Of a DNA stretch of 64,000 nt, positions 25,349 through 46,515 are shown piece by piece. Within the stretch, counting starts at the first letter, position 1. The number at the start of each line of letters is the position of its first letter. The notes beneath the pieces are model-generated. The model did not search any database and was not told the DNA's origin. It worked only from the letters and a program-made list of their open reading frames with translations. Source of the stretch: Eubacteriales bacterium (lineage in GTDB: Bacteria; Bacillota; Clostridia; Oscillospirales; JAAYXM01); the NCBI GenBank assembly GCA_045636865.1, contig JAZTYJ010000025.1, positions 10,679 to 74,678 of the forward strand. The letters are read 5' to 3'. A program made the position numbers and the translations under genes.

Positions 25349-27562
25349 ATGAAAAACAAAACACACTCATCCCGCAATTCACTCAGAATAATAAGCCTTA
25401 TTATGATGTTTTTTATGCTGCCTTCCCTTTTACCCTCAGCATATGCTCAGAACGCCTGGAACATGAGTGCCTTTCTCAAAAACTATCCTGACTCACATTT
25501 TAATCTGAACAATGAACCTAACCGCGTTATGACAATCGAAGAATTTATCGCTTTAACACATACATATTCCTATTATGGCGCAGGCGCAGAAAACGTTACC
25601 GTAGTTGACAAAAACGGAAAATCGCCCTCTGCCTGGTGCGGGAAATATGTTCAAGCAGAGGCCAACAAAAAAGTCTTTGACCCCGAGCGCATATCGTGGA
25701 ACGACCCGGTTACACTCGCTTTTGCAGCCCAGTTTATGGTGCGCTCAAAAGGTAAATACTCATACGACGCTAACAATCTCTACACTTTCTCCGGTACACA
25801 AAACCTCTCGGCAGACGATATATTGTATTTATGCGCTGCTGTTGATTACGGTTTGATTCCTTACAAACCCGGAATGGACGTTTCCGTAAAAATACTGCGC
25901 CGCGATGCACGGAAATATGAAATTCCGACTACACTTCCACCGATCAAACCTACCATAGCAGGAAACGCAAACTCCATGCGGGAACTGAACGCATATTTTA
26001 TTGACTGCTATTGGGACACTCAACAAAAAAAAGAACAACTGAACAAGTTAAAGCAGGCAAGCGAATACATAACTATGGTCACCTTCTTCTCGTCTTATAT
26101 AAACGGTGAAAGCGTTACTGACAACAATCGTTTTCTTGGTTGTTATATAGAGAATTCCAATGAAAATTCCAAAAAAGACCCTCAACTGGATGCAATACAG
26201 TTCTGCAAAGAAAACGGAAAGCTTGCCTTACTTGGAGTATGCAACGCATTAGGTAACGGCTTCCCCGCTTCGACAACAAAGGAGATGCTTGAAAGTGAGG
26301 GGAATATGCAGACCGCTATAAAAGAAATAATGGCTGCTGTTAAACAATACGATTTGGACGGCGTTAATTTAGGAATCGAAATCTCAGACCCGGCATTCAG
26401 TAATATGAGAAACAATTATTCCACATTTGTAAGACGCCTCTCTGAAGCACTCCATAAACAGAACAAAGTTCTTATGGTAAGCGTCGGTGCATATTTCACA
26501 GACAAACAAGAGGGTTCATCGATTTATGATTATTCAGAAATCGGTAAGTCCGCAGATTATGTGCACATCATTCTTTACGACGACTTCAACGACACCGGCT
26601 ACCCATATCGCGGAACCCACGGCCCCATCAGCAACATCGTCAGAATCGGGCGTTGTCTGAGATATGCAGCAGCTAAAATGGATCGAAGCAAAATTCTTTT
26701 AGGAACCGGAACTTTTGCAATAGATTTTAATCTGACCGCCAGAACAGCTAAAGACATCAACTATGCAGAAGCCACCGCCCTTTATCAGAACTCCGGCGCG
26801 CAGGTTGTTTACGATAATGCTGACAATGCGGCCGGCGCATATTTCGAATACACCGATTCCTCCTCAAACAAGCACAGAGTATATTGGGAAACCGGAAAAA
26901 CCGCTGCACAAAGAGCAAATATAGTCAAAGACTACAACCTGGGCGGATTCAGTGTATTCAATCTCAACGACAATAACGAACCCGTGTATAAAGCTTTGGA
27001 TGCAATATCTTCTTTCAAGCCTGAAGTAACTCACGCCATAGCAAGCGGACTTGTTCCCATCAACCTGAGAAGCAATTACGACAAACCTATCCTACGCCGT
27101 GAATTCTGTTCTGTAATCGTCAAGTTCATAGAAAGCAAATCCGGAATGAGTTCTGAAAAATTCATTGAGTCGAAGGGCAAAAATATTGTTTCTTCTGCTT
27201 TCACCGATACAAAAGACGAGAATGTTCTGATCGTTAATGCACTCGGTATTGTAGGTGGATACGGCAACGGAAAGTTCGCTCCCGACAAAACGATTTCCCG
27301 CCAGGAAGCCGCTGTTATGCTTATGAGGCTTGCAAAAGTTATGGGATTTGAGAAACCCAACAGCACACCGATAACATTCAAAGAATCCGCCACGCTCCCC
27401 TCTTGGGCGAAGCAAGGTGTCGACTTCATTTCAGCTTGCATCGACTCTAAAAACGCAAAAAGAGTTATGGGTGGCACCGGAAACAATATGTTTTCACCGC
27501 AAGGAACATATACAAGAGAACAAACATTTATGTCAATCTTCCGCTTGTACAACGCTTTTTAA
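25349..27562 (+). CDS. secreted GH18-like (chitinase-fold) protein with SLH cell-wall-anchoring domains
   Basis: Signal peptide (MMFFMLPSLLPSAYAQ). GH18-like barrel whose DGxDxDxE motif reads DGVNLGIE. C-terminal SLH repeats (FTDTKDENVLIVNALGIVGGYGNGKFAPDKTISRQEAAVMLMRL; MFSPQGTYTREQTFMSIFRL). Confidence 0.65.
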   Translation: MKNKTHSSRNSLRIISLIMMFFMLPSLLPSAYAQNAWNMSAFLKNYPDSHFNLNNEPNRVMTIEEFIALTHTYSYYGAGAENVTVVDKNGKSPSAWCGKYVQAEANKKVFDPERISWNDPVTLAFAAQFMVRSKGKYSYDANNLYTFSGTQNLSADDILYLCAAVDYGLIPYKPGMDVSVKILRRDARKYEIPTTLPPIKPTIAGNANSMRELNAYFIDCYWDTQQKKEQLNKLKQASEYITMVTFFSSYINGESVTDNNRFLGCYIENSNENSKKDPQLDAIQFCKENGKLALLGVCNALGNGFPASTTKEMLESEGNMQTAIKEIMAAVKQYDLDGVNLGIEISDPAFSNMRNNYSTFVRRLSEALHKQNKVLMVSVGAYFTDKQEGSSIYDYSEIGKSADYVHIILYDDFNDTGYPYRGTHGPISNIVRIGRCLRYAAAKMDRSKILLGTGTFAIDFNLTARTAKDINYAEATALYQNSGAQVVYDNADNAAGAYFEYTDSSSNKHRVYWETGKTAAQRANIVKDYNLGGFSVFNLNDNNEPVYKALDAISSFKPEVTHAIASGLVPINLRSNYDKPILRREFCSVIVKFIESKSGMSSEKFIESKGKNIVSSAFTDTKDENVLIVNALGIVGGYGNGKFAPDKTISRQEAAVMLMRLAKVMGFEKPNSTPITFKESATLPSWAKQGVDFISACIDSKNAKRVMGGTGNNMFSPQGTYTREQTFMSIFRLYNAF

Positions 27563-27737: not shown

Positions 27738-29123
27738 TTATCTTGCATCGAACCTTTCCATAAACGGCTCACATTCTTCAAGCGGAAGCGGTTTTGAATA
27801 ATACCACCCCTGAATATAGTCACAGTCTGATTCTGATACAAACTCATTCTGCTCTTTGGTTTCGACACCTTCACAAATAACCTTGATATTCAGACTATGC
27901 GCAAGAGCTATAATTCCCAAGAACAAGTCCCTTCCCTTTTTCGTTTCTGTCTTAAGAAGAATATCACGGTCAATTTTTACAACATCTATCGGATAATCAC
28001 AAAGATTTATAAGCGAAGTGTAGCCGCTTCCAAGGTCATCGAGATAAACATTGAAGCCGAGCTCCTTGCATTTTGCAACATTTTCCATTGCAAGATTTCT
28101 GTCTTTCTCCATGGCGTCTTCTGTAATCTCTATAACAAGCTTTGAGTTGTCAAACTCGTATTTACTCGAGATTGCGGTGAGGTTATCAACAAAGCTTTCT
28201 TCCGACAGAGTAATTCGTGTGAAGTTGCAGGAAATCGAAATATCCTTGCATTCCGTATCCTTCCACTTTTCAAGCTGACGGCAGACAAGCTCAAACATAT
28301 AGAAATCAAGCTTGCTGATAAGCCCTACCATTTCCATATTCTCGATATACATAGCAGGGCTCTGCAGTCCCTTATCCACGCTGTTCCATCTGGAAAGGGC
28401 TTCGGCAGATACTATCTTCTTTGTCTTATTATCGACAACGAACTGCAGATACATCTTGAATTCGTTGTTTTCAAAGCCTTTCAGGATGCTTTCCGTAATC
28501 TGCTTTTCTTCCTGAACAGAATTCATTGAATTTTTATCGCAAAATATAACCTGCTTTTCTGTACCAAAGATTCTGTTGCAATTTTTCCGCAGGTTAAAGA
28601 GCAGGAGCTCGCAGTTGCGGTCAGCTTCCGAAAGCGGATACACCGCCGCATAACAAGCAAGCTTTCCTCTTTTATCTCTTATGCCATCAAAAGCATTAAG
28701 CTTATTCATAAGCTCATTAAATCTCTTCTGAGCCTCTTCCTCTGTTTCCGACCGAAAAGCAAATGCAAAGCCGTTTTCGGTAATTCTTGCCGAAAAACTT
28801 CCGTCATCCGTACACTCTGACAAAACAGATGCAGCGTATTTGAGCGCATCTGCAAACGAGATCCCGCTTCTATCAGCCCTCAAAGATGCGATATCCAGAA
28901 CAATATATGCAACATAATAGGTGCTTCTGAGAATATCTCCTATGGTATATTTGAAATGGTATTTGAAAAACTGCAGATTTCCTATCCCTGTTTCACTATC
29001 TGTTACTTTATCTTCTTCGCTTTCCTTTTTCACCTGCCTTATCTTCGCAACCAAAACAGCTATCAGAACAAGCAATATCGGAATGAGCACGAATCTTATC
29101 AGAATCTTATCCATCGGATACAT
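27738..29123 (-). CDS. membrane-anchored c-di-GMP phosphodiesterase (degenerate GGDEF + EAL)
   Basis: One TM and a GGDEF-like domain lacking the GGDEF motif (ARITENGFAFAF). The EAL domain has EALSRW, EITED, DDLGSGYTSL, KIDRD, EGVETKEQ and QGWYYSKP. Start trimmed to ATG 29123 or 29114. Confidence 0.8.
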   Translation of the reverse strand: MYPMDKILIRFVLIPILLVLIAVLVAKIRQVKKESEEDKVTDSETGIGNLQFFKYHFKYTIGDILRSTYYVAYIVLDIASLRADRSGISFADALKYAASVLSECTDDGSFSARITENGFAFAFRSETEEEAQKRFNELMNKLNAFDGIRDKRGKLACYAAVYPLSEADRNCELLLFNLRKNCNRIFGTEKQVIFCDKNSMNSVQEEKQITESILKGFENNEFKMYLQFVVDNKTKKIVSAEALSRWNSVDKGLQSPAMYIENMEMVGLISKLDFYMFELVCRQLEKWKDTECKDISISCNFTRITLSEESFVDNLTAISSKYEFDNSKLVIEITEDAMEKDRNLAMENVAKCKELGFNVYLDDLGSGYTSLINLCDYPIDVVKIDRDILLKTETKKGRDLFLGIIALAHSLNIKVICEGVETKEQNEFVSESDCDYIQGWYYSKPLPLEECEPFMERFDAR

Positions 29124-29359
29124 CTCCCCTCTTTCAAGGACATTATATTCGTCGTGGTCTTGTATGATGTAACAAGCCCGACCGCAAATAAAAAACTGCA
29201 ACAACAGAAAGCCCTGCTTATGGGCCACTATTATTGCAGCTGGACTGGCATAGTATAAAACCTTAGCCTCTTTGCTTTGCGTCGCCGGCTTTCGCCGGGT
29301 TTGCCAAATATTCAATTTCTATCAGTTTATCACACTAAAGTTTTTCTGTCAAATATTAT

Positions 29360-31660
29360 TTAATCTTTTGCAAAAACCCAAAGGGTTTCGTTTGCGCGTT
29401 CATCCTCATCATTAAGCTTATATACAGTAAGAATAACGGTTTCACCATTGACCTTCTTGTAGGTGATTCTCGGAGCATTCCCTTCAATAAGCTGTTTTTT
29501 TATAGCATCATAATTCAGGAAACTTTCAACATATCTGTGAAAATCAGGGTGCACCATATCATTTATATACATCTCAAGAAGAGAAGAGAATTTATCTTCA
29601 TTCTCATTGTATCCAAGATATGCCGGCATAAGAATCCTGTGAGCTTTATTTGTGTCAAGAGAAACACGGTAGATTCCGTTATAGTGTTCCTTCACGACAG
29701 AAATCATTGTATCAATCTCACGGATTCCGGTCTTCGTTTGGACATAGCCGCTGTCTTCGTTTTTGACCGTACTCTTGTTTTCCTTGTTCTGGTAATAAGA
29801 AGCCTTTGCCTCATACATTCTCACCTCGGCCTCTCTTACCATTTCTTCGGTGTCTGTGTTCTGCGTTCTGTAAGATGTACCGATTGCGACATTATAATCC
29901 ATCGGCTTTAATCGTTCAACAAGAAGCTCTACTCCCTTCTGAATATCCGACGAATCTGTATCTTTTGCAAATACAAGGAATTCATCGCCGCCCATGCGAT
30001 ATATATTGTGGCCGTAGAATACCTCTTTCAAAGTGTTCGCAATAAATACAAGCATTTCGTCGCCTGCCGCATGGCCATATCTGTTATTGCGAAGATGAAG
30101 CTCGTTTACATCAATATAAACGCAGGAGAACTTGTACGGTTTTTCGCTGTCAAAATCGCAAATATCCCGCTTATAAACAACGCGATTGAGAACACCCGTG
30201 AGCGAGTCTGTCGTTGCAGCACGCTCTGTCTGGTTAAGATGTTTTTTGTTATAGAGCGCAATAGAGAAGCAAACTGCAATGTTTTCTGCAAGAAGCAAAG
30301 CATCTCTGCTCCTTGTTGGGTTGATTGCGCCAATAATAGAGATGTGATTGTCCTTACTTGTTACGGCAGCAAAAGAAACCTCTTTTATACCGTGAAATCT
30401 CAAGAATGTGAAAAAGCGTTTATTGGTTTCTGAAAGATGTTCATCCGGAACAATGCGCATAACATTCACGGTTGTTCCGCTCATCTTCCGAAGCTGCGCA
30501 GAATGATGCAACAACTCTTCGATAAAATACTTTCTGTCCTCACCCGTTAAGAGCTTACTCTCCTCCGTCGACAATATATAATGATAATCTTCGCCATCTG
30601 TATCAAAGAAGAAAGCCGACTGTGACTTCGCAAACAAACAAATCTTGCGGAGTGCTTCGGTTATATTGTTTTGCTGCTGATTGATTTCAAGGAGAGTCTT
30701 TCTTACATCAGACGAGCAGACAGTAACAGCATTTCTGCGTTTTTCGGCAGCCAGAATAAGCATTATATACAACGCCATCACAACAATCATTGCAAAGAAG
30801 GTGAGCAACAAGACCTTTGATATAGTATGTGTATCAGCAAATACCTGCGATTCATATCTCGCAAGAGTAATCTTCCAGCCAATATCCTCAATAGTAGAAT
30901 AATGAACATAGAGATTCTCTCCGTTATACGCCGAAACGAATGATGTGAACCCCTTATCGCTTTCCATCATCTCTTTATAGGAATAGCCATCGTTATATTT
31001 ACGGTCGCTGAGGAAGTTTATATTTCCGAGAGTTTCATGAAGCGAGTCAATAACAATGACACCATTTTCAAGGTCATGAACAAAAAGCTGAGCATCAAGC
31101 TCTTTTGCCATAAGGCTGTACCTTCTGTTTATAACCTCAGTATCGATGATACCGTACAATATACCGACAATCTCATCATTTACCTTTATCGGAACGGCAC
31201 TTCGGACAACTTCGTCACCTTCGGTTATGATAGACGGTACCCTTCCGCTTATGTACTTTCCCTTTGCGCTTTCCTCTTCAAAAGAAAGCTTGCCATTTAA
31301 GTCGAATTGTCTTCCGCGCGAAACAAATATGTTGTCAGGTGTCAAAATACCTATGCGCGAAAAAAGGCCTATAGGCTTAAAGGATTCAAAAACGCGGTCA
31401 TAGCTTTCGCCATCAGCATAAAGCTTTGCGGCAAAGTTTGCCATAGTGATAAGATTTTCTCTGTCAGAGATCATCTGCAGTGTGAGATCGTCTTTAATCT
31501 GCTTCGTCTGGATATGGAGCATCTCATACGCCTCGTTTTCGGCCTTTGTATAAAAATAACTCACCATCGACAAGAATATCACACACAATAAAAATACCGC
31601 TGTAACTGTACCCAAAACATTACTCTGTCTTTGTTTTCTTTTCTCGTATGTTATCGCCAT
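29360..31660 (-). CDS. sensor diguanylate cyclase (TM-Cache-like-TM, GAF-like, GGDEF, C-terminal PAS-like domain)
   Basis: 766 aa. LTGVLNR...YIDVNELHLRNNRYGHAAGDEMLV...IYRMGGDEFLVFA shows an intact GGDEF. No RxxD I-site lies 5 residues upstream. Confidence 0.8.
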   Translation of the reverse strand: MAITYEKRKQRQSNVLGTVTAVFLLCVIFLSMVSYFYTKAENEAYEMLHIQTKQIKDDLTLQMISDRENLITMANFAAKLYADGESYDRVFESFKPIGLFSRIGILTPDNIFVSRGRQFDLNGKLSFEEESAKGKYISGRVPSIITEGDEVVRSAVPIKVNDEIVGILYGIIDTEVINRRYSLMAKELDAQLFVHDLENGVIVIDSLHETLGNINFLSDRKYNDGYSYKEMMESDKGFTSFVSAYNGENLYVHYSTIEDIGWKITLARYESQVFADTHTISKVLLLTFFAMIVVMALYIMLILAAEKRRNAVTVCSSDVRKTLLEINQQQNNITEALRKICLFAKSQSAFFFDTDGEDYHYILSTEESKLLTGEDRKYFIEELLHHSAQLRKMSGTTVNVMRIVPDEHLSETNKRFFTFLRFHGIKEVSFAAVTSKDNHISIIGAINPTRSRDALLLAENIAVCFSIALYNKKHLNQTERAATTDSLTGVLNRVVYKRDICDFDSEKPYKFSCVYIDVNELHLRNNRYGHAAGDEMLVFIANTLKEVFYGHNIYRMGGDEFLVFAKDTDSSDIQKGVELLVERLKPMDYNVAIGTSYRTQNTDTEEMVREAEVRMYEAKASYYQNKENKSTVKNEDSGYVQTKTGIREIDTMISVVKEHYNGIYRVSLDTNKAHRILMPAYLGYNENEDKFSSLLEMYINDMVHPDFHRYVESFLNYDAIKKQLIEGNAPRITYKKVNGETVILTVYKLNDEDERANETLWVFAKD

Positions 31661-31742: not shown

Positions 31743-31774
31743 AAAAAAGCACCGCCGTACAGCGGTGCTTTTTT
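31743..31774 (-). terminator. terminator ending the pel/CotH/VTC/DUF4956 operon
   Basis: AAAAAAGCACCGC-cgtaca-GCGGTGCTTTTTT, 11 nt below the DUF4956 stop. Confidence 0.8.
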
Positions 31775-31784
31775 CGTTTCAAAT

Positions 31785-32456
31785 TTATCCGTGATATTCA
31801 CCATTGTACTGAATGAGCGTGACATCCTCTACACCCTCAACAGCCCGAATTTTCTCAAGAATGAATGTATCGTTATTCTTGCAGTAAACCTCAACTGCCA
31901 TCTCAACAACATCTTTTCTGACAGTTTTTGATTTAATGAAATACTTCATCTTGCCAAACGCGCGAATGATGTTATCTCCTGCTTCATCTGTAACATAATG
32001 AATAACCGCTATGTAAATTCTTCCTTTGAGCTGGTGCTTGTTGAAGATTATTATTATGAGCACCATAACAACAGCGGCAATAAGCACGAGCAGGTACATA
32101 TTTGCGCCCGCTGCGATACCGGATGTTATCGCCCAGAAAAGATAAAGAAGGTCAAGCGGATCCTTTACCGCAGTTCTGAAGCGGACGATCGAAAGAGCAC
32201 CGACCATACCAAGAGATATTACGACATTCGTACTGATTGCAAGTGTTATGACCGCTGTCATAATCGTCATACCGATAAGCGTTACAGCAAAGCTTTTTGA
32301 ATAAATAACACCTGTGTAGAACTTCTGATAAGTCAGGTATATAACCGCACCGATTATAATGGCGGTTATAAGACCAAGCGCAATATTTGTAAGGCTTAAT
32401 CCGTCAAATGCACCCGACTCCAGTATTGATTTTTTTATAACATCCTGAACACTCAT
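31785..32456 (-). CDS. DUF4956-family membrane protein
   Basis: 223 aa: 4-5 N-terminal TM helices (FRTAVKDPLDLLYLFWAI) plus a soluble C-terminal domain. Sits in the usual VTC/CotH neighbourhood. Confidence 0.65.
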   Translation of the reverse strand: MSVQDVIKKSILESGAFDGLSLTNIALGLITAIIIGAVIYLTYQKFYTGVIYSKSFAVTLIGMTIMTAVITLAISTNVVISLGMVGALSIVRFRTAVKDPLDLLYLFWAITSGIAAGANMYLLVLIAAVVMVLIIIIFNKHQLKGRIYIAVIHYVTDEAGDNIIRAFGKMKYFIKSKTVRKDVVEMAVEVYCKNNDTFILEKIRAVEGVEDVTLIQYNGEYHG

Positions 32457-32469
32457 TTTTTATCTCTCC

Positions 32470-33192
32470 TCAATTTTCATACCAGTATTTTGTGAACGCA
32501 TTCATATATTCGGTCTTCTCATAGCAGAGAACATATTTTGATACTGCTGTAAACTCCGAGGCGCGGTCTGGGAGTATCTCACGGACACCCTGTGGAAGAA
32601 ACTCCGTGAACTTGACCTCCATAACGCACTTCCCCGGTTCAAGCACAGGAAGCGTCGGGAGTGTCGCATCAAATATGTCGAAACTTCCGACTGCGGCGCG
32701 GACATCCATATCAAAGGTTATTCTTACAGTACCCTCATCGGCTATCCATGGCTCGCGGTCGTAATCTACTGTTACTCTCGGCCGCATAACATTCGATACA
32801 CACTCAAAATAGAATTCATTCAAAAGACTTTTGTCACTCTCCAGCAGGAAACCGTAATCTCCGTCTAAAATCTTATAAACCTCGTCGCGTGTAAGCGATG
32901 CCGCTTCTTTGAATATATAGCTTCCGTACTTTTTCTTTCTCTCAAGCTTGATGCTTGAATCAGAACAGTTATAGATTCGGATGCGGTATTTTTTTCGCTG
33001 CAGGAATCCGCCTTCCTTTTCTTCGTAGGCAGTATCGTAATAATCGTCAAAATAGAGACTCCGTATCATATATCCGCCGTTTTTTGCATGTTTATCAAGC
33101 GTAAGATACGGTGAAAGTCGTCTGCATATTACCTCTTTCTGAGCAGTATCAATAAGATACTTCCACTCGTTTCTGTATCGCTCAGCCTTCAT
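32470..33192 (-). CDS. VTC-domain protein (polyphosphate-polymerase-like triphosphate tunnel fold)
   Basis: MKAERYRNEWKYLI...YMIRSLYFDD...KYRIRIY...MEVKF are alternating charged beta-strands typical of CYTH/VTC tunnels. ATG 33192 overlaps the cotH stop by 11 nt and has a GGAGGA RBS. Confidence 0.65.
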   Translation of the reverse strand: MKAERYRNEWKYLIDTAQKEVICRRLSPYLTLDKHAKNGGYMIRSLYFDDYYDTAYEEKEGGFLQRKKYRIRIYNCSDSSIKLERKKKYGSYIFKEAASLTRDEVYKILDGDYGFLLESDKSLLNEFYFECVSNVMRPRVTVDYDREPWIADEGTVRITFDMDVRAAVGSFDIFDATLPTLPVLEPGKCVMEVKFTEFLPQGVREILPDRASEFTAVSKYVLCYEKTEYMNAFTKYWYEN

Positions 33193-34945
33193 ATGCATCC
33201 TCCACGACATTGCCGTCTGCATCTATATAGAAGCACTTTGTACCGTATTTCTTTCCGCCGTCGATATAGTAATAGTCAAAGGCGGTCTGGGTGTATCCGC
33301 TCTTGTTCGTCGCCGTTACTCTTACGAAGTACTGGCCTCGCGGAAGCATATCTATTTCAGTAGTCGGGAGCGGAACATCCTGCTTATCAAGTATGAGATT
33401 CCTGAAGTCGTAATCTCTTGCAACCTGTATGTCATAAGTAATCGGCTCAGCATCAAAATCAAACGAACTCTGGCTTGAGATTATAAGCTTATCACCTTTT
33501 TTTCTCGGTGCGTCAATAAAAAACGGCATCGGCTTTTCAAATGACGCCTTATAGAGGTTGTAGTTCAAATCAATCTCTGACGAAAGTCCCGCTACAACTC
33601 TGTCATACTGCGCAGATGTAAGCGGAAGATGAAGAATGTCGGGGTAAGAATAGACATACGGTTTTACAATAGAGGCATATCGCTTTGACATACTGTCTAT
33701 TTTCGATTTTGTAAGGTAATTTGCTTTAAGATCTTCTATTGCAGCATCAAGCGCCTTTCTGTATTTTTCGCTCTTGAGCGCTCTCTGGAACAGAACATTG
33801 CCCCAGTAGTTGCTGACGCCCGTTTCCCACTCTGCATAAGAAACTCTGTTCATCTCGGAATACTCGGTTTTGTTCAACATACCGTCGTTATCCCATGATA
33901 TAAAGTACCACTTATCAAGATTGAGCGGACTGTATATGTAAACATTTCGGCTCTGAGTATCAGCATTTCCCGTAAGAATATGGAACGCCATCCAGTAGCT
34001 TAAGTTTTCGATATCAAAATACTTATCAAGAACTTCATCAACAGGCTTTGAGAAATCGTTTACTTCCTCAAGCATTTTTATAAGCTTTCCATGGTCATCG
34101 CTGCCCTTTGTTTCTATAAGTTCTTCAAACGCCGCCTCGTCGAATGTCGAGTCTTCCTTCATTTTGATTATATCTTCGTATCTGTAAAACTCAAATACAT
34201 TTATCTTGTAAAGATGAGCGTTTGCATCAAGTCCATGAACCTTGAGTGCCTTTTTGTTCAGCTGTTCAACATAGGTGTAGATACCGTAATCGGTAAATTC
34301 ATTGTTGCCACCCTTCGTTGTATCCTTTACATAAAGATGGACAAACTTTGTGCGAAGTCCCATCATCTGCGGAATCTCCGAAATAAGGTCATAAGCCATC
34401 TTGTTGCGGAAACGGAGACCTTCGTTGACATGCTTATTGAGCGGAATGGAGGTATTCCCCATCCACATACCTTTATTGTCCTTAAGGCTTATCTTATAGT
34501 TCTTCACAGACTGGCGGCTCGACGTCTGACCTCGGATCTGTATTGTGCAGTTCGGCGAGACCTGCCCGTAACCAAGCTTTCCGGGAAGCGGACCTGACTC
34601 GTCTCCAATCTGCAAAAGACCCTCTACCTTATATCTTTCAACTCCCATATCCTCATAATCGAATACGGAATATGTGTTTATCTCACTCCAGGTGTGGTTC
34701 GTTTTTTCGCCATCGTTGCCTTCAGAAACGGTAAGATACATTGTTACAACATCTTCAGGCTTATCGACCGCGTACAAATCAGGCTTATCGCGAAGCTTAT
34801 ATTTTTCATTGTACTCAAGATCAGGCACATAAACACTTTCCGTGTTTTCGGGAAGCGCCTCCTCCTGCGGCAGAACTTCGGCGCAGCCTGATAAAAGGAT
34901 GCCGAGTATTATCACCAAAGGGATTATTCTGAACGTCTTTTTCAT
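33182..34945 (-). CDS. CotH-family kinase-like lipoprotein
   Basis: Lipobox LLSGC at the N-terminus, then a CotH-type core (...NKHVNEGLRFRNKMAYDL...YWMAFHILTGNADTQSRNVYIY...WYFISWDNDG). Its start overlaps the pelG stop (ATGA). Confidence 0.7.
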   Translation of the reverse strand: MKKTFRIIPLVIILGILLSGCAEVLPQEEALPENTESVYVPDLEYNEKYKLRDKPDLYAVDKPEDVVTMYLTVSEGNDGEKTNHTWSEINTYSVFDYEDMGVERYKVEGLLQIGDESGPLPGKLGYGQVSPNCTIQIRGQTSSRQSVKNYKISLKDNKGMWMGNTSIPLNKHVNEGLRFRNKMAYDLISEIPQMMGLRTKFVHLYVKDTTKGGNNEFTDYGIYTYVEQLNKKALKVHGLDANAHLYKINVFEFYRYEDIIKMKEDSTFDEAAFEELIETKGSDDHGKLIKMLEEVNDFSKPVDEVLDKYFDIENLSYWMAFHILTGNADTQSRNVYIYSPLNLDKWYFISWDNDGMLNKTEYSEMNRVSYAEWETGVSNYWGNVLFQRALKSEKYRKALDAAIEDLKANYLTKSKIDSMSKRYASIVKPYVYSYPDILHLPLTSAQYDRVVAGLSSEIDLNYNLYKASFEKPMPFFIDAPRKKGDKLIISSQSSFDFDAEPITYDIQVARDYDFRNLILDKQDVPLPTTEIDMLPRGQYFVRVTATNKSGYTQTAFDYYYIDGGKKYGTKCFYIDADGNVVEDAYEG

Positions 34946-36402
34946 TTCTTATCTTCCTCCAGCACATCTTCAAGAAATACTTTCATTTTTCGGAATACTC
35001 CTGATTTGTCCTCGCTTACAAGCGGTTGAACTGCAAGTATATAATACGGCAGGCGTTTCGTAAAATAATCGAGCCTGAGAGTCGCAACTATCAGAAACGC
35101 CATTGATGCAAGAAGGAACCCGAAGCCGTAATAAACCTGTGGCAGGAACAGCGATATCACCGAGAATACAACCGAGCATACCGCAAAGATTCCTGTTGCA
35201 AAAAATGCGCCTTTATAGTCAGTAAAATACAAAAGCATAAGCATTGTCATATTGCCGATGGCGTAAAGCCCATATCCTACACAGAGGGTTCTGAAATATC
35301 CTCTCATCATCTCATTGAATCCAAGCGGCAGGATATCGAGCAAAAATCCACCTGCGGCGATGAAGATAGCCGTACAGAGAAGCTGTTTTATGGCAGTATA
35401 GAGTGTTTCTGTCTTTAGTGTATCAAGCATCTCCTTCTCTGCCTGAAGAATATCTTTCACCGTACCTTTATCGTTATATAAGCTGTAATGGTTACGATAC
35501 TTTCCGTAGAAATTCACTTCAACCGATACAACAAAGTTTACCGTTGTTATAAGCGTTGTCATAAACGCCAGAAGTGCCGGCACATCGTGTTCAGGTGCGC
35601 CGTAGAAAAGCCCGTGAACCTTTACACCTACTTTTGAAAACCACATTATGACAAGATGTGCAAACATTCCGATATTCACAAAGAAACCCGCCAGCGTCAG
35701 ATGCAGATATTCATCCACCCACTCAAGGAAAACAAATGCTCCGACATCAGATTTCGGGAAATACTTATGCAGAAGCACAAGATTCCAGATAACCATAACG
35801 CCGTAGCCCACCGTTATGGAAAGAAGAAGCATCTCTATTACATACGATTTGAAAATAAGAGTCAGAATAAAACCGAGCACGAATATTACAAGTATCGCAG
35901 TAAGATACGAAAGAAAGATTCCTTTATAATCTTTTATTGCAGTCAGATAGCTCATCGCATTCCACACGATTATCATTTCATTGAAGAATATGAACATAAG
36001 AACCGAGCACATAAGATTTGCGCCTGAAAACGCGAGAAAGATCGTCCACAGCACACTTCCTACGGTCATCATAAGTGCGCTGCTTCCCCAGAATGACGGA
36101 AGGACTGCGCTCTTTTTCTCTTCATAGAGCATATCTGCAGTAAATCGCGTTATGGTCATTGAGAAGAAGGAGGTAACGGTAATTGATGCAAGCAGAGTAT
36201 AGGTTATCATACATATCAGAAGCTCTCTTGTTGCGGTTTCGACCCCCGCTCTTGCGCAAAGGAACATTATACCGAGCAGCAGAATGACTCCCAGAAGCAT
36301 CGGTCCCGAACAGATAACCGTAGCATAACCGTATGCTTTGACTGAGTTTAAGATTCCCTTTTTCTGAAAGAGCTTTCTGAGTTCAAACCCTATGCCTGCC
36401 AA
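34942..36402 (-). CDS. pelG: Pel exopolysaccharide export/flippase-like protein PelG
   Basis: MAGIGFELRKLFQKKGILNSVKAYGYA... is the hallmark PelG N-terminus, followed by ~12 TM segments. Confidence 0.8.
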   Translation of the reverse strand: MAGIGFELRKLFQKKGILNSVKAYGYATVICSGPMLLGVILLLGIMFLCARAGVETATRELLICMITYTLLASITVTSFFSMTITRFTADMLYEEKKSAVLPSFWGSSALMMTVGSVLWTIFLAFSGANLMCSVLMFIFFNEMIIVWNAMSYLTAIKDYKGIFLSYLTAILVIFVLGFILTLIFKSYVIEMLLLSITVGYGVMVIWNLVLLHKYFPKSDVGAFVFLEWVDEYLHLTLAGFFVNIGMFAHLVIMWFSKVGVKVHGLFYGAPEHDVPALLAFMTTLITTVNFVVSVEVNFYGKYRNHYSLYNDKGTVKDILQAEKEMLDTLKTETLYTAIKQLLCTAIFIAAGGFLLDILPLGFNEMMRGYFRTLCVGYGLYAIGNMTMLMLLYFTDYKGAFFATGIFAVCSVVFSVISLFLPQVYYGFGFLLASMAFLIVATLRLDYFTKRLPYYILAVQPLVSEDKSGVFRKMKVFLEDVLEEDKK

Positions 36403-37817
36403 CCTTCTTCAACCTCCTTATAAAGATTTCTGTATTTTCCGAGCATTATCGGATATCTGTAATGCTCGTATGCTCTCTTTTTTCCTATTTCGCCCATCGT
36501 GAGCCTTAACTCACGCGACTCGCACATAATTTCCATCTTGTCAGCGAGCTGTTCTCTCTGCATAGGCGGTACACAGTATCCTGCAACACCGAAGGTATCA
36601 CCAGGACTTCCTTCGAGAAGCTCACGGCAGCAGCCCACTTCTGTAGTTACGCACGGTCTTCCTGCTGCAAACGACTCAAGTACCGACAGAGGCTGTCCTT
36701 CGGAGATGCTTGTAAGTATCGTAAAGTCAAGCTTCTCAAAATACTCAACAACATTTACTCTTCCCGGCATTATAACCTTATCGTCTATGCCAAGCTGGGT
36801 GATGAGGTCGCGGCATTCCTGCGCGTACTCTTCATCATCAACGCCTCCCATTATGTGAAGCCTTACATTATCCATTCGCGTTGAGAGTTCAAAGAATGAA
36901 TATATCATAGTTTTAATATCCTTAATTGGTGCAAATCGTACAACAGCACCGATATCAACATATCCGTCGTCTTCCTTTATCGGGATATCACAGAATCTCT
37001 CGTAACTTATTCCGTTTTCTATAACATAACATTTTTCTCTCGGACATCCCATTTCAACCTGAGTTTCCCTTGCTCGTGTAAAGAGCGAGGTTACGCGGAA
37101 AGCCCGGTCATATATGAGATCTGAAAGCATATAGAAGAACTTTACCCATTGCCCCTTGAACGCCTTTCCAACCCATTTCGCACGAATTATTTCTTCTTCT
37201 CTTTCGCGGGTATATATACCATGTTCTGTAAGTAAAACGGGTTTATTCTTTATATAGCCGCCAAGGCACGCAAGAAGACCTCCATATCCCGTTGAAATAG
37301 CATGGTAACAGTCTGCCTCCGGAATTTCGCTACCCATAAGGTACAGAACAGGCAAAAGCCTTGATCGAACCGAATGGAATGCATCCGAAAAGGCGGTATA
37401 CGGAAATTCTGTCTGGCAAATTTCTATGAGAGTTTTCAAAAAGTGTTCACTTTTCAAATAACTCATCGGGTTTATCTTCTTTTTATGGTACATATCAAAG
37501 AGAAGTTCCCAGTCAGGCTTATCAGAAAATACAAGTCTTCTGAGCGCTTCGTTTTCTTTCTCCGAGAAGGTATGGTTAAACACCTTGTTTGGTTTAACTC
37601 TCAAGGCGTCATCAAGAAACACCTGCTTCACTTCCACAACATTCGGCGGAAGCTTATATACGAACTTGTCCTTGTCCTCAGCTTTTGCGCCTATAACCCA
37701 AAGAACAAATTCGTGCTCAGGCATCTCTGTTATATACTGATGTGCCCAGGTGGACACACCGCCGTTTATGTAGGGGTAGCACCCCTCAAGCACCATACAA
37801 ATTCTCATTGTTTTCAC
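36390..37817 (-). CDS. pelF: GT4 glycosyltransferase PelF
   Basis: MRICMVLEGCYPYINGGVSTWAHQYI (DUF3492/PelF N-terminus). C-terminal GT1/GT4 motif SISEGQPLSVLESFAAGRPCVTTEVG. Confidence 0.8.
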   Translation of the reverse strand: MKTMRICMVLEGCYPYINGGVSTWAHQYITEMPEHEFVLWVIGAKAEDKDKFVYKLPPNVVEVKQVFLDDALRVKPNKVFNHTFSEKENEALRRLVFSDKPDWELLFDMYHKKKINPMSYLKSEHFLKTLIEICQTEFPYTAFSDAFHSVRSRLLPVLYLMGSEIPEADCYHAISTGYGGLLACLGGYIKNKPVLLTEHGIYTREREEEIIRAKWVGKAFKGQWVKFFYMLSDLIYDRAFRVTSLFTRARETQVEMGCPREKCYVIENGISYERFCDIPIKEDDGYVDIGAVVRFAPIKDIKTMIYSFFELSTRMDNVRLHIMGGVDDEEYAQECRDLITQLGIDDKVIMPGRVNVVEYFEKLDFTILTSISEGQPLSVLESFAAGRPCVTTEVGCCRELLEGSPGDTFGVAGYCVPPMQREQLADKMEIMCESRELRLTMGEIGKKRAYEHYRYPIMLGKYRNLYKEVEEGWQA

Positions 37818-37822
37818 CAGAA

Positions 37823-39682
37823 TTATTTTAAATTGATTGTAACCGTTTCTTTTTCTGCGCGAAGGAGATACAGATTCCCCGTGAGGTGGGTAAGACTGCC
37901 GCCGTCAACGCTTTCATATTCTCCCTCATTGAAGCGAACAAAGAAATATCCCTCATCGTAGAAGTTTCCGATTTTCAGAACGAGTTCATCTTCCGTTCTT
38001 TCTTTTTCAACATTGATTGCCGCATATCTCTGCACCGCAGCCGATGTCTCAGACCCTGTAAGGTTTCTGATCATCGGAGCCGAGGTATAGAGATAATCAA
38101 GATATTCACCAAAGCTTTTCGAAAGACTTCTCCACCCCTTTTCCGCACCTCGCTCCGGGTCAAGCGCATCGTCAGGGTGCGTAAAGTGACTGTTTATAAA
38201 ATGCATATTAAGCTCTGAAACAAGTGCAAGCTCCATAAACGGAGTAAGCTCACAGCCCGAAATAACTCGTGGCTGATGCACTCTTCCATCAGGCAAAACC
38301 TCAAACTCCTGCACACAGCCGAACTTAAAATCGCCGTCAGGAAAATAGATTCCCGATATCGTCTTTATATGTGGATATGTATCAAGCAGAAAAGACTCTC
38401 CAACACTTGACATAATGTTTGAAGGTGGAACATAAAGCGATACATCAACACCCGGGAAAAGTCTGTCGCAAAGGTCAACAAGCGAATCAAACGCGCTCTT
38501 CATCGCCCTCTCACTTTCCCATGTTTTATAATCGTACAATCCCTCGTAGTCGCACTCACTCATACAAAGCGGCTGATGGTTATAACCATGATATCCGACC
38601 TCACCACCCTGACGGAGAAGCATATTTCCAAAATTCAGGAATGTTCCCTCATCCGGCTCCGACGGGGTTGTTCCGTCAACCTCATCGTCATAGCCCGTGA
38701 TTGCAAGCCCTGTGTATTTCATGCCGTACTTATCGGCAAAGTCCATCATTGCAGGCCACCAGATATTGACATAAAAGTCTCTTGTTGTTGCACCGAAATC
38801 ACGCATTATATATTCGTTACTTCCCTGCGGAATCTGCGACGGGAAGTCGTCGAGATAGAATGTTGACGCATTTATAACGGGGTAAACGAACACATCATCC
38901 ATAAGACTTAAGGCTGCCGCGTAGAATCCTCGCGTAACCCTTTCGCAAAGGCCTGTGTTATTTACAACAAACTTGCCTTTTCCGTATTCCGTTTCCCATA
39001 TAAGCGGTGCGCGACTTTCATTATCAACCCAGGCATGAATCTTCGCTCTGTTCTCGTCAAGGCGAACAGCCCATACCGAATCGTAGCCGTCTTCAACAAT
39101 AAAACTTCTGCCTCCGCCTACCATAAAACCATCTTCAATATAAATGCCTTCAAGATGTGCATTCTCCCAGGAAGCTTCAAGGATGCCGAGTGCACCCTCA
39201 AGCACGGATACATATATGTCTCTCTTAAGCGTAAGCGCAAACATTACAGCGCCACCGTCATATACCCAATCCCGCAATGTAATAATATTTTCGCCGACAG
39301 GTTCAAGATCAGTCAAAAGCACAATCACCTTATCGTACTTTGACAAATCAGGGAAGGCGTTTTCCGACAAATCGCAAGCATCACACCCTACCTTCATATC
39401 AGAGAGTATTGTCGGAAATTCATCGAGCGCATCGCGACTTTCAGGCTGTGTTGCATCAAACAGAACAAGTGTATTTTTCTCAATCCACTCGTTTGCCTCA
39501 CGCTTTGTGACAACACTTTCCTCTTCCATAAACCCGAGCGAGTTTTTATTGTAATTGTACTGTATTCCGCTTCGCTCAACAAAAAGAACAACTGCCATAA
39601 GCGCAAACATCAGCGCAACTACCAGCATACCGTTATATCTGAATTTAAGAAACCGTTCTTTTAGTTCTTTTAATTTTTCCAA
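37823..39682 (-). CDS. DUF2194 protein (Gram-positive PelA deacetylase-type, PelA_DA-like)
   Basis: N-terminal TM, then a large extracytoplasmic domain with a CE4-like HGYNHQP motif. Its position between the pelE-like gene and pelF matches the Gram-positive pelDEA(DA)FG order. Confidence 0.6.
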   Translation of the reverse strand: MEKLKELKERFLKFRYNGMLVVALMFALMAVVLFVERSGIQYNYNKNSLGFMEEESVVTKREANEWIEKNTLVLFDATQPESRDALDEFPTILSDMKVGCDACDLSENAFPDLSKYDKVIVLLTDLEPVGENIITLRDWVYDGGAVMFALTLKRDIYVSVLEGALGILEASWENAHLEGIYIEDGFMVGGGRSFIVEDGYDSVWAVRLDENRAKIHAWVDNESRAPLIWETEYGKGKFVVNNTGLCERVTRGFYAAALSLMDDVFVYPVINASTFYLDDFPSQIPQGSNEYIMRDFGATTRDFYVNIWWPAMMDFADKYGMKYTGLAITGYDDEVDGTTPSEPDEGTFLNFGNMLLRQGGEVGYHGYNHQPLCMSECDYEGLYDYKTWESERAMKSAFDSLVDLCDRLFPGVDVSLYVPPSNIMSSVGESFLLDTYPHIKTISGIYFPDGDFKFGCVQEFEVLPDGRVHQPRVISGCELTPFMELALVSELNMHFINSHFTHPDDALDPERGAEKGWRSLSKSFGEYLDYLYTSAPMIRNLTGSETSAAVQRYAAINVEKERTEDELVLKIGNFYDEGYFFVRFNEGEYESVDGGSLTHLTGNLYLLRAEKETVTINLK

Positions 39683-43423: not shown

Positions 43424-43452
43424 ATTATAAAACATTTTTTGATTTTTTTCAA
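43424..43452 (-). promoter_or_regulatory. promoter of the pel operon
   Basis: Minus strand: TTGAAA, 17 nt, TATAAT, ~70 nt upstream of the pelD-fusion ATG (RBS AAAGGAGGA). Confidence 0.6.
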
Positions 43453-44540: not shown

Positions 44541-45350
44541 TTACTTTCTTGAATCTACAACTTTGCGGATGCTCCAGTCGTTCTCTTCGAGAAGACTCTC
44601 TGCCTCTTCTTCGCTTACACCGAGAATATCAGAAACAATAAAGAGCATTCTTCTTGTAAGCTTTATGTTTGTCGGGCGCAAGTTTATCATGAGATTTTCA
44701 TAAACATAGCCGCACTTTATCATGACACTTGTTGATATCATATTAAGGATAAACTTTTGCGCTGAACCTGCCTTCATTCTGGTAGAACCGGTTATTACCT
44801 CTGCCCCCGTATCCGGAACAATTGAGATATCTGCTACCTGATCCGTGAGCGAACCTTCGTTTGATGTTATGCCGACAGTAAGACAGCCTTTTTCCTTTGC
44901 ATACTTCATCGCATCTACAACATATGCCGCATTTCCTGCAACAGAGATTCCGACTACGGTATCCTTTTCATTGATATTGTACTTTGAGAGATCTGCGATA
45001 CCGTCTGCTCCACTATCCTCGTTTCCTTCACCTGCGATTGCAAGGCACTTTTCTCCACCTGCAATTATTCCGATTACTCTGTCTTTATTGAGGCCGAATG
45101 TCGGAGGGCATTCTGCCGCGTCAATGATTCCGAGTCTTCCTGATGTTCCGGCGCCCATATAGAAGATTCTGCCGCCGTCCTTGAATCTTTCAGATATTGC
45201 ATCAATCGCCTCGGCAACACTTGCAAGAGTTGCATCTACCGCTTTTACGGCATTCATATTCTCTTCGTTGATGAGCTTTACCATCGAAAGGGTGTCCATC
45301 TTGTCAATATTGATACTCTTTGGGTTTCTTGATTCTGTTCTTGATCTCAT
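44541..45350 (-). CDS. murQ: N-acetylmuramic acid 6-phosphate etherase MurQ
   Basis: TESRNPKSINIDKM...GRIFYMGAGTSGRLG (SIS)...GSTRMKAGSAQK. The start may be 45350 or 45368. Confidence 0.85.
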   Translation of the reverse strand: MRSRTESRNPKSINIDKMDTLSMVKLINEENMNAVKAVDATLASVAEAIDAISERFKDGGRIFYMGAGTSGRLGIIDAAECPPTFGLNKDRVIGIIAGGEKCLAIAGEGNEDSGADGIADLSKYNINEKDTVVGISVAGNAAYVVDAMKYAKEKGCLTVGITSNEGSLTDQVADISIVPDTGAEVITGSTRMKAGSAQKFILNMISTSVMIKCGYVYENLMINLRPTNIKLTRRMLFIVSDILGVSEEEAESLLEENDWSIRKVVDSRK

Positions 45351-45354
45351 TTTA

Positions 45355-46515
45355 TCACTCTCCCTCATTCAAAACCTTTTCGTATTCCCATTTGAATTTT
45401 TCTTTAAGTTTATCAGCACTTATGCCCAAAAGCTTACAGCAGAGAACACACGCACCGAGCACCTGCGGATTTTCTGCAATTATACAATTAATCTCAGGGT
45501 GTACCTTCTTCTTTACAGCTTCAGAAAATTTCTTATTTTTATAAAGCGAGCCTGCAAGGATCAGAGTTTTGCACTCTCTGTTTTTTTCATATGCCGTGTT
45601 TATAAGATACGCAATGCGGTCAACATTCTCGCATATTATCCGATCCGCAGCTGCATCGCCATTTTCCCACGCTTTAAAAACAAGCTTAGAAAAAGACGCA
45701 ATATATGACACATCTTTGTTATAAAACTCCGGAAGAATGCTTATCATTTGGTCTGTTCCAAGCCACTCTGTAACAAGCCCGGTTATCATCGATTTTTCTC
45801 CGATACCTTCACTCTCTTCAAGTGCCGTTTTTATGGCTTCTCTGCCGATATCATATCCACTTCCCGCTTTATCAAACAGAACTCCGTATCCGCCGTACTT
45901 TTTAATTTCACCACTCTTATATGCAAACGTGACATTTCCAGTACCGCTTATTGTTCCGAGGCAATTTTCTTCATCCGTTGTACAGGCGATGACATTGAGC
46001 ATATCGCTCGCACACCTTATCTTTATCATCGAAAAAAAGTTTTTAAGCCGATTTTTTATGTACTCTGCATTACCACCTGTCAGGTATCCCGAACCGCCAA
46101 TAAATATGCCTTTTACATTCGGCTTTGTTGCAAGACATGTCTTTATTCCATTTTTAAGCCTTTCACAGACCTCGTCACGTCCGTAAAAATTCGGGTTTGT
46201 CCCGTCTCCTACAAATCTTTTAAAAATCGTCCCGCTCTCACCAAAGAGGATATACTCGGTTTTTGTACCGCCACCATCAATACCTATCATAGCCTTTTCA
46301 CTATCTTCAGAATGCCCGACGAGCACATCAACACTGCATCCGAGAAGTTCTGCAAGCAAGCAAAGCTTGTCTATTTCAGGAACCGCCACGCCTCTCTCCC
46401 ACTTTGAAATCGCCTGATAGCTGACAAACATTTTTTCTGCAAGTTCTTTCTGAGATATACCTTTCATTTCTCTATGTTTTTTGATGTTATATGCAAGAAC
46501 GCTGATATCGAACAC
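45355..46515 (-). CDS. XRE-type HTH fused to a BadF/BadG/BcrA/BcrD-type sugar kinase (MurK/GlcNAc-kinase-like)
   Basis: N-terminus ISQKELAEKMFVSYQAISKWERGVAVPEIDKLCLLAELLG (Cro/C1 HTH). Then GIDGGGTKTEY, TISGTGNV and GGYGVLFDKAGSGYDIGREA (ASKHA phosphate/adenosine motifs). Confidence 0.7.
   Translation of the reverse strand: MFDISVLAYNIKKHREMKGISQKELAEKMFVSYQAISKWERGVAVPEIDKLCLLAELLGCSVDVLVGHSEDSEKAMIGIDGGGTKTEYILFGESGTIFKRFVGDGTNPNFYGRDEVCERLKNGIKTCLATKPNVKGIFIGGSGYLTGGNAEYIKNRLKNFFSMIKIRCASDMLNVIACTTDEENCLGTISGTGNVTFAYKSGEIKKYGGYGVLFDKAGSGYDIGREAIKTALEESEGIGEKSMITGLVTEWLGTDQMISILPEFYNKDVSYIASFSKLVFKAWENGDAAADRIICENVDRIAYLINTAYEKNRECKTLILAGSLYKNKKFSEAVKKKVHPEINCIIAENPQVLGACVLCCKLLGISADKLKEKFKWEYEKVLNEGE

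Follow-up and report, generated by a model that had tools for sequence, protein, structure and literature searches.

Accessory genes of Gram-positive pel operons were described by Whitfield et al. in 2020 (PMC7112168) as a "second accessory gene group", which consists of CotH, polyphosphate polymerase, DUF4956 and DUF4832 genes and is contiguous with pelDEA_DAFG in streptococci and clostridia, and also in bifidobacteria, where a diguanylate cyclase/phosphodiesterase (DGC/PDE) gene replaces DUF4832. The presence of DUF4832 is variable (PMC7112168; PMC12345266), and the group correlates with PelD proteins bearing an N-terminal SDR domain (PMC7112168). The orthologues of the first three genes in Streptococcus intermedius, SIR_1594, SIR_1593 and SIR_1592, were later each deleted (mBio 2025, PMC12345266; bioRxiv 2024). 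Pel was still produced in all three single mutants: the CotH deletion lowered Pel, the DUF4956 deletion raised it, both of these mutants aggregated more than 50% less in artificial sputum medium, and no phenotype was seen for the VTC deletion in the conditions used. The same study reported that the Pel of S. intermedius is rich in N-acetylgalactosamine (GalNAc) and stated that the three-gene arrangement does not occur outside pel. Here we analyse a cotH-VTC-DUF4956 trio at positions 31,785 to 34,945 of a 64,000-nucleotide (nt) stretch of contig JAZTYJ010000025.1 from Eubacteriales bacterium; this whole stretch is called the window below. The window holds another instance of the published accessory cassette at the 3' end of Gram-positive pelDEA_DAFG operons. 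The initial annotation of the trio held that a phosphorylating or polyphosphate branch of a Pel pathway had not been described, and this was wrong at the level of gene content (PMC7112168, 2020; PMC12345266, 2025). What our analysis adds is the pel independence of the cassette, its complete Vtc4-type active site and the near-obligate pairing of VTC with DUF4956.

The trio closes a row of eight minus-strand open reading frames (ORFs) that run head to tail from 43,352 to 31,785 in the order pelD-like, pelE-like, pelA_DA, pelF, pelG, cotH, VTC, DUF4956 (Table 1). The core pelD-E-A_DA-F-G genes are all present and co-linear on one strand, the PelD-like and PelE-like proteins being assigned by position and locus homology. 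The scores of PelA_DA, PelF, PelG, CotH and VTC lie far over the Pfam/NCBIfam thresholds, and that of DUF4956 is over its threshold. At the first junction the pelG stop TGA (34944-34942) overlaps the cotH start ATG (34945-34943) in an ATGA, and a GGAGGA lies inside pelG, 9 nt upstream. At the second junction the cotH stop (33184-33182) and the VTC start ATG at 33192 produce an 11-nt overlap; the ribosome-binding site of VTC, GGAGGA at 33203-33198, stands 5 nt ahead of this start. The ORF lister proposed another in-frame ATG farther upstream, at 33222, which was rejected as the VTC start: homologues are 239-241 amino acids long and align from 33192 end to end. The VTC stop (32472-32470) is followed by a 13-nt gap with GGAGAG and then by the DUF4956 start at 32456. 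In the 29-44.6 kb region the terminator scan found only one strong minus-strand terminator, at 31774-31743; the other minus-strand hairpins have 5-7 pairs, and the background rate of the scan is high. The reading of these junctions and of the lone strong terminator in the initial annotation was thus confirmed in the sequence. Judged from these features, the trio of the window is predicted to be co-transcribed and translationally coupled with pelG.

The resemblance to the S. intermedius group is close. The same three families stand in the same order directly downstream of pelG on the same strand, an SDR-like domain is found N-terminally in PelD, CotH carries a signal for secretion and additional sequence at its C-terminus, VTC is predicted to be cytosolic, and DUF4956 is predicted to cross the membrane with several helices and to have an ACT-like domain. 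However, the window has no DUF4832 gene after DUF4956 (the gene is present in the relatives L084 and L093) and continues after the terminator with a GGDEF and a GGDEF-EAL gene, in which it is nearer to the bifidobacterial variant. Its PelD also has an additional N-terminal HD-GYP domain, and the host is an uncultured member of Clostridia.

The arrangement was followed in a genome scan, in which a profile of 37 diverse VTC proteins yielded 80 species-level loci with VTC identity of at least 65%; these loci were then searched by tblastn with the window proteins. They come from metagenome-assembled genomes (MAGs) of Clostridia, from Blautia, Roseburia, Lachnospiraceae, Faecalibacterium prausnitzii, Abiotrophia defectiva and about 65 Collinsella species, which dominate the set, so that the scan speaks for the close clade only. 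Wherever the contig extends far enough, the 80 loci all keep the order pelD-E-A-F-G-cotH-VTC-DUF4956 on one strand, and therefore the arrangement of the trio is not due to chance. The spacing of the genes is tight throughout: the VTC-DUF4956 junction has a median of +3 nt, the pelG-cotH junction ranges from -17 to +28 nt, and for the cotH-VTC junction the value is -11 nt among the closest relatives as against +37 nt in Collinsella. The nearest relative, a Eubacteriales MAG (L001), shares 95% VTC identity and 82% nucleotide identity with the window. When the eight-gene block of Collinsella (Actinomycetota; L011-L079) is compared with that of Clostridia (L002-L010), the proteins are 55-68% identical one by one and stand in the same order. 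This likeness suggests that the block may have moved laterally as a unit among gut bacteria.

The VTC protein is predicted to be a Vtc4-like triphosphate-tunnel enzyme, that is, a polyphosphate polymerase with an intact active site. When VTC and CotH were compared directly with PDB sequences by phmmer, no useful match was obtained and profiles were required; the profile of VTC homologues matches the yeast Vtc4 structures at 1.3e-10. The AlphaFold2 (AF2) model of the protein has a predicted local distance difference test (pLDDT) score of 92.6, and its eight-stranded tunnel fold is closest to Vtc4 (E value of about 1e-13, template modelling (TM) score of 0.65-0.69). The top Foldseek matches are 3G3R, 3G3Q, 5IIQ and 8I6V_E, with E values of 1e-13 to 1e-12 and TM scores of 0.61-0.69, ahead of YgiF, CYTH and ThTPase. 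According to the cryo-electron microscopy paper on the VTC complex, nine residues of Vtc4 bind triphosphate/Mn2+ and are needed for polyphosphate synthesis, and one of them, K458, is missing from the inactive Vtc2 and Vtc3. All nine are found in the window protein: K11, R70, R72, K86 and Y144 align with K200, R264, R266, K281 and Y359 of Vtc4, and R146, E192, S218 and K219 align with R361, E426, S457 and K458. These residues are invariant in the alignments of 37 and 50 VTC sequences. The reading of VTC as a tunnel enzyme in the initial annotation is thereby borne out as far as the alignments and the model go, and so is its view that the protein has no signal peptide, as no hydrophobic N-terminus is present.

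The comparison with the yeast VTC complex (Vtc4 with the Vtc1/3/4 DUF202 channel) reveals both kinship and distance. Common to both are the tunnel fold (Foldseek E value of about 1e-13), all nine residues, including the equivalent of Lys458, and a small dedicated membrane protein, which in the window is encoded beside the catalytic domain. In contrast to yeast, the window protein consists of the VTC domain only: the SPX domain and the transmembrane/DUF202 helices were not found, and the enzyme is not fused to transmembrane helices. Its membrane partner is an MgtC-like DUF4956 protein with an ACT-like domain, unrelated to DUF202, and the destination that we propose for the product would be the cell exterior rather than the vacuole lumen. 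Some VTC homologues (P0138, P0140, P0155 and P0260) carry N-terminal extensions of 140-400 residues, which are rich in Lys, Pro and Gln, look disordered and have no Pfam match; such a polycationic tail is a curious feature for an enzyme that resembles a polyphosphate polymerase. These long proteins were considered as natural fusions and rejected, as the extensions look disordered and basic with no second domain. A single CotH-VTC frame at L155:8168-10711 was set aside as well, as the near-identical L134 has a stop there, and the frame is probably due to an assembly indel.

To look beyond the close clade, we sampled VTC homologues at 33-48% identity together with a metagenome scan seeded on pel-free VTC; the family comprises about 4,800 VTC clusters at 50% identity. 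DUF4956 adjoins VTC in 72 of the 73 informative metagenome loci and in all ten distant representatives, and CotH is adjacent in 68 of 68 informative metagenome loci. The trio is kept at 33-45% VTC identity, where its order is sometimes permuted to VTC-DUF4956-CotH. Among 37 metagenome trios with at least 3 kb of upstream sequence, 25 follow pel genes and 12 occur without pel. The pel-free trios (L088, L089, L096, L102-L107, L110, L114, L115, L148, L153, L175 and L176) stand in diverse surroundings: L089 is a Wzx/Wzy-type polysaccharide locus, in L088 a two-component system precedes VTC-DUF4956-CotH, L175 is a Paenibacillus chromosome, and L176 is a hydrothermal-vent contig with nos genes. Five loci (L103, L104, L106, L113 and L128) were at first taken for VTC-DUF4956 pairs, as a hidden Markov model of CotH did not recognise their divergent CotH proteins; Pfam detected CotH directly upstream in each of them. 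These pel-free trios contradict the published statement that the arrangement is confined to pel (PMC12345266). The recurrence of the trio, which had been noted in the initial annotation, is thus confirmed and extends widely outside pel; the named matches come from Firmicutes and Collinsella, with one vent contig. Around 12 pel-free trios we counted 101 ORFs, among which GT2 glycosyltransferases are foremost (13), joined by DegT, Bac_transf, LytR-CpsA-Psr and ABC exporter genes. The trio looks like a portable cassette, usually placed on surface-glycan loci, with pel as its commonest host.

One could argue that such a cassette has a job of its own, for instance surface phosphate storage or scavenging, or the phosphorylation of non-Pel wall polymers, and that it was inserted after pelG and shares the promoter there, so that its effects on Pel would be indirect. 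We give this explanation a slim chance. About one third of the informative metagenome trios are without pel, the trio stands alone in Paenibacillus and on the vent contig (L175 and L176), where no glycan genes were found within 10 kb, it is found in the Wzx/Wzy locus L089, and the whole block appears mobile between phyla (65-68% identity between Collinsella and Clostridia), all of which would fit. However, the link to pelG is invariant over the 80 species-level genomes of the window's clade, with reading frames that overlap or nearly do so; surface-glycan genes are still over-represented beside the pel-free trios; and the CotH and DUF4956 mutants of S. intermedius have Pel-related phenotypes (PMC12345266).

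The CotH member of the trio points to the outside of the cell. It starts with MKKTFRIIPLVIILGILLSGC, with a lipobox LSGC at residues 18-21, and a lipobox or membrane anchor is found in all 12 of the aligned trio CotH proteins; thus the lipoprotein nature claimed in the initial annotation was recovered, and the extracytoplasmic location is predicted from it. The kinase domain spans residues ~135-462 and is followed by a C-terminal region (~480-587) without a domain call; some trio CotH proteins add LTD, Fn3_assoc or CHB_HEX_C domains, and the equivalent region of the S. intermedius orthologue is reported to be an FN3-like beta-sandwich (PMC12345266). The profile of the 12 trio proteins matches the Bacillus cereus CotH structure 5JD9 at 8e-26. 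D329 and N334 (GNADTQSRN) and D352 (WDND) are invariant or nearly so in the 12 proteins and align with the NFDGFVHN and WDYD motifs of 5JD9 (DxxxxN and WDxD). The former motif is reported to supply the catalytic Asp/Asn and the latter the metal-binding Asp (Nguyen et al. 2016). The trio CotH is predicted to be an active-looking kinase displayed outside the membrane. It belongs to the same Pfam family (PF08757) as the spore-coat Ser/Thr kinase of Bacillus (5JD9/5JDA) and keeps its catalytic residues. In contrast, the kinase of Bacillus uses ATP to act on CotB and CotG in the cytoplasm of the mother cell, whereas the window protein is a lipoprotein outside the membrane, encoded in an exopolysaccharide operon, and its kinase domain is flanked by an additional N-terminal region and by further C-terminal sequence.

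A cytosolic enzyme, a membrane protein and an exported enzyme are strictly inherited together in unrelated loci, which argues for one membrane-crossing pathway. Our preferred picture, which we hold tentatively and with somewhat less than even confidence, is that the trio would be a self-contained, portable three-protein unit that spans the membrane and relays polyphosphate from the cytosol to the surface. In this picture VTC, docked on DUF4956, would make polyphosphate, a phosphoanhydride, from ATP at the membrane; DUF4956 would pass or gate it to the outer face; and CotH would use the polyphosphate, or act alongside it, in phosphorylating the Pel polymer, matrix proteins or proteins of the cell surface. 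The trio would in this way tune the properties of the matrix rather than make Pel synthesis possible. We infer here the synthesis of polyphosphate, its export via DUF4956, the donor of CotH and the substrate of CotH. The more specific proposal, namely that VTC and DUF4956 form a bacterial polyphosphate synthase-translocase whose exported product serves as the phosphoryl donor of the extracytoplasmic CotH, appears to us unlikely as it stands. Such a synthase-translocase would be a functional analogue of the eukaryotic VTC complex, built with an unrelated, MgtC-like membrane partner. Both the synthase-translocase and the use of its product by CotH had already been suggested in the initial annotation, and they give the simplest form of such a pathway: the predicted working pair agrees with the near-obligate adjacency of VTC and DUF4956, which is the pattern expected of a catalytic subunit and its membrane partner, and the published genetics go along with it only in part.

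The DUF4956 protein is predicted to have five transmembrane helices followed by a C-terminal ACT-like domain of beta-alpha-beta-beta-alpha-beta topology (AF2), which agrees with the four to five helices and soluble domain given in the initial annotation, the membrane part being modelled at low confidence. The ACT-like domain, the only part used in the fold search, matches ACT folds with a TM score of about 0.7 and an E value of about 1e-3. The family has an invariant motif, N77-x3-SLGxVGALSIVRxRxAxK-x3-D102, in which the invariant R92, R94 and K98 lie at the predicted cytosolic end of helix 3 of the low-confidence membrane model. DUF4956 may be a distant MgtC relative, and the sequence relation is weak: the protein matches the NCBIfam MgtC family at 7.7e-4 (19 bits against a cutoff of 214) and PF02308 at E = 0.71 (10.7 bits against a cutoff of 31.4, below the family threshold), and sub-threshold PF02308 matches occur in 13 of 15 DUF4956 family members, the best at 1.2e-3. 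With MgtC/SapB/YhiD proteins such as Salmonella MgtC it has in common this weak and consistent sequence relation and, as far as the low-confidence membrane model goes, may share a layout of five predicted helices and then a cytosolic ACT-like domain. It differs in falling below the family thresholds, in its own invariant SLGxVGALSIVRxRxAxK motif and, unlike MgtC, in always having a VTC enzyme as its partner.

In Salmonella, cellulose production is repressed by MgtC, which also acts on PhoR and the F1Fo ATPase. It could be, then, that the trio is a regulatory module, in which an MgtC-like, ligand-sensing DUF4956 would restrain the Pel synthase or phosphate/ATP homeostasis, CotH would phosphorylate the extracytoplasmic Pel machinery or a partner of it and so stimulate output, and polyphosphate would stay in the cytosol as a signal or buffer; we regard this as possible, although on the unlikely side. 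The authors of the S. intermedius study take essentially this view (PMC12345266); their DUF4956 and CotH deletions changed Pel in opposite directions while the VTC deletion changed nothing. Apart from the weak, consistent MgtC relation and the ACT-like domain, it would fit the correlation of the cassette with PelD variants bearing an inactive SDR domain (PMC7112168), suggesting altered regulation, and the pel-free trios that stand beside two-component systems (L088 and L175). However, one would not expect a Pel synthase regulator to be kept where pel is absent, the strict trio of cytosolic, membrane and exported proteins across unrelated loci and phyla is left unexplained, and such a module offers no evident function for the strongly conserved basic motif on the membrane side of DUF4956.

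Another possibility is suggested by the polysaccharide itself. Pel of Pseudomonas binds extracellular DNA ionically. Exported polyphosphate could likewise act as an anionic cross-linker or counter-ion of a cationic, partly de-N-acetylated Pel, with CotH anchoring, priming or trimming the chain instead of using it as a donor. A PelA_DA deacetylase is encoded in the same operon, the VTC active site is intact, the cassette affects aggregation and not Pel synthesis (PMC12345266), and the phosphoesterases near pel-free trios described below would fit the turnover of an extracellular phosphate polymer. We consider this improbable: in S. intermedius aggregation did not fall when VTC was deleted, the Pel of that strain was reported as GalNAc-rich (PMC12345266), which means little cationic charge, and the conserved kinase residues of CotH argue for phosphotransfer over a structural role.

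Phosphoesterases recur beside pel-free trios. In L103 a 2086-residue surface protein (L103:11608-17865) combines a phosphodiester glycosidase (NAGPA) domain, a purple-acid-phosphatase domain and choline-binding repeats; a purple-acid-phosphatase-like gene (L175:8540-9781) is divergently transcribed in Paenibacillus; and L085:14225-15067 is a Metallophos gene. These neighbours hint at a turnover of extracellular phosphate esters or phosphoanhydrides, and would fit any model with an extracellular phosphate ester or anhydride.

Several observations weigh against a polyphosphate relay. Among the homologues examined, no reliable natural VTC-DUF4956 or CotH-VTC fusion was found. The AF2 model of DUF4956, made from a shallow alignment, has a pLDDT of 62, with the membrane part at low confidence (~50-65), and the profile search found no sequence relative of DUF4956 in the PDB. 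DUF4956 resembles MgtC, a regulator of other membrane proteins, and not the DUF202 helices of the yeast polyphosphate channel. The VTC-DUF4956 pair also occurs without CotH within 10 kb (L085-L087), the sole confirmed pair-only case with full flanks. We know of no protein-kinase-fold enzyme that takes polyphosphate as a donor. Furthermore, the published genetics fit the relay only partly, because a linear relay predicts three like phenotypes, and in S. intermedius the VTC deletion had none and the DUF4956 and CotH deletions shifted Pel oppositely (PMC12345266).

Table 1. Features of the pel operon and its accessory trio in the window, listed from the candidate promoter to the terminator.
Feature	Coordinates	Strand	Evidence
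Sigma-70-like promoter candidate, TTGAAA-17-TATAAT	43424..43452	-	Consensus match 11/12; ~70 nt upstream of the pelD-like ATG at 43352
PelD-like protein, 926 amino acids	40572..43352	-	Pfam HD_5 1.5e-27; NCBIfam c-di-GMP phosphodiesterase 1.6e-24
PelE-like helical-repeat protein, 295 amino acids	39670..40557	-	Weak HEAT/TPR matches; position and homology kept in pel loci
PelA_DA, DUF2194/DUF2334 polysaccharide deacetylase-like	37823..39682	-	Pfam DUF2194 3.5e-145, 485 bits
PelF, GT4 glycosyltransferase	36390..37817	-	NCBIfam PelF equivalog 1.9e-94, 317 bits vs cutoff 100; Pfam DUF3492 and Glycos_transf_1
PelG, membrane protein	34942..36402	-	Pfam PelG 3.1e-133, 445 bits
CotH-family kinase-fold lipoprotein, 587 amino acids	33182..34945	-	Pfam CotH 1.9e-64, 218.6 bits vs cutoff 23.8
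VTC-domain protein, 240 amino acids, predicted cytosolic polyphosphate polymerase	32470..33192	-	Pfam VTC 7e-35
DUF4956 membrane protein, 223 amino acids	31785..32456	-	Pfam DUF4956 3.9e-11
Intrinsic terminator closing the 8-gene unit	31743..31774	-	14-pair stem with 6 GC pairs, 4-nt loop, T-run

The first gene of the operon deserves a separate description. The PelD-like gene is co-linear with the PelD-like genes of more than 60 loci, and its product is laid out as an N-terminal HD-GYP domain, an SDR-like domain, a transmembrane region and a C-terminal GAF domain with a degenerate GGDEF domain, the C-terminal part being read by eye. The profile of PelD-like homologues matches sugar epimerases at 2.4e-12 and GGDEF weakly at 0.03; by this profile match the N-terminal SDR/epimerase-like domain, the known correlate of the accessory genes, is present in the window protein, whose SDR/epimerase-like region contains LLVGNTGYV. 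A RAND motif stands 5 residues ahead of EEGKL. Pfam searches of isolated PelD-like segments found no SDR, GAF or GGDEF domain, and the family profile was needed for the SDR-like one. The HD-GYP domain looks intact, with HD in SLHDIGK and GYP in GTGYPEGL. This extension is common to the closest relatives L002 and L004 only, other PelD-like proteins covering ~73% of the sequence, and the mentions of HD-GYP in the 2020 paper concern proteins other than PelD (PMC7112168). With a receptor for cyclic di-GMP (c-di-GMP) fused to a domain that degrades the same molecule, such a protein would be an unusual switch that limits itself.

Just past the operon terminator, at 27738-31660 on the minus strand, the window encodes a 766-residue membrane GGDEF protein and a 525-residue GGDEF-EAL protein. 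Both genes are also found downstream of the trio in L001, and the pair echoes the bifidobacterial variant with its DGC/PDE gene in place of DUF4832. Farther out (25349-27562 on the plus strand and 44541-46515 on the minus strand) lie cell-wall-related genes for a GH18 protein bearing an SLH anchor, a MurQ-like SIS protein, and a helix-turn-helix protein with a BadF/BcrA-type (sugar-kinase-like) ATPase. No polyphosphate or phosphate-uptake genes were seen among the neighbours of the operon in the window. In another organism, Clostridium perfringens, the gene list of necrotic-enteritis locus 2, NELoc-2 (PMC11677781), includes two polyphosphate-polymerase-domain proteins, a CotH kinase, a HEAT-repeat protein, a glycosyltransferase and a polysaccharide deacetylase, and reads like a pel-type locus carrying the trio cassette.

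The locus itself adds little, as its architecture has been published since 2020 and probed genetically. In the literature search no functional work on VTC-domain proteins of bacteria was found, and the trio is very widespread, in gut Clostridia, Collinsella, streptococci, Paenibacillus and others. As the cassette is not specific to Pel, simpler hosts without pel, such as Paenibacillus, can serve for the study of its function, and the VTC-DUF4956 pair with its invariant basic motif is a place to seek a physical complex. If exported polyphosphate does serve CotH as a donor, this would solve the absence of ATP outside the cell, Pel, other surface glycans or matrix proteins would be phosphorylated, and the trio would be a portable kit for phosphorylation outside the cell that is placed on different glycan loci. 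Should the relay be true, it would be the first bacterial VTC-type polyphosphate exporter and would contain the first kinase-fold enzyme run on extracellular polyphosphate, which would bear on the chemistry of the biofilm matrix in gut commensals and pathogens.

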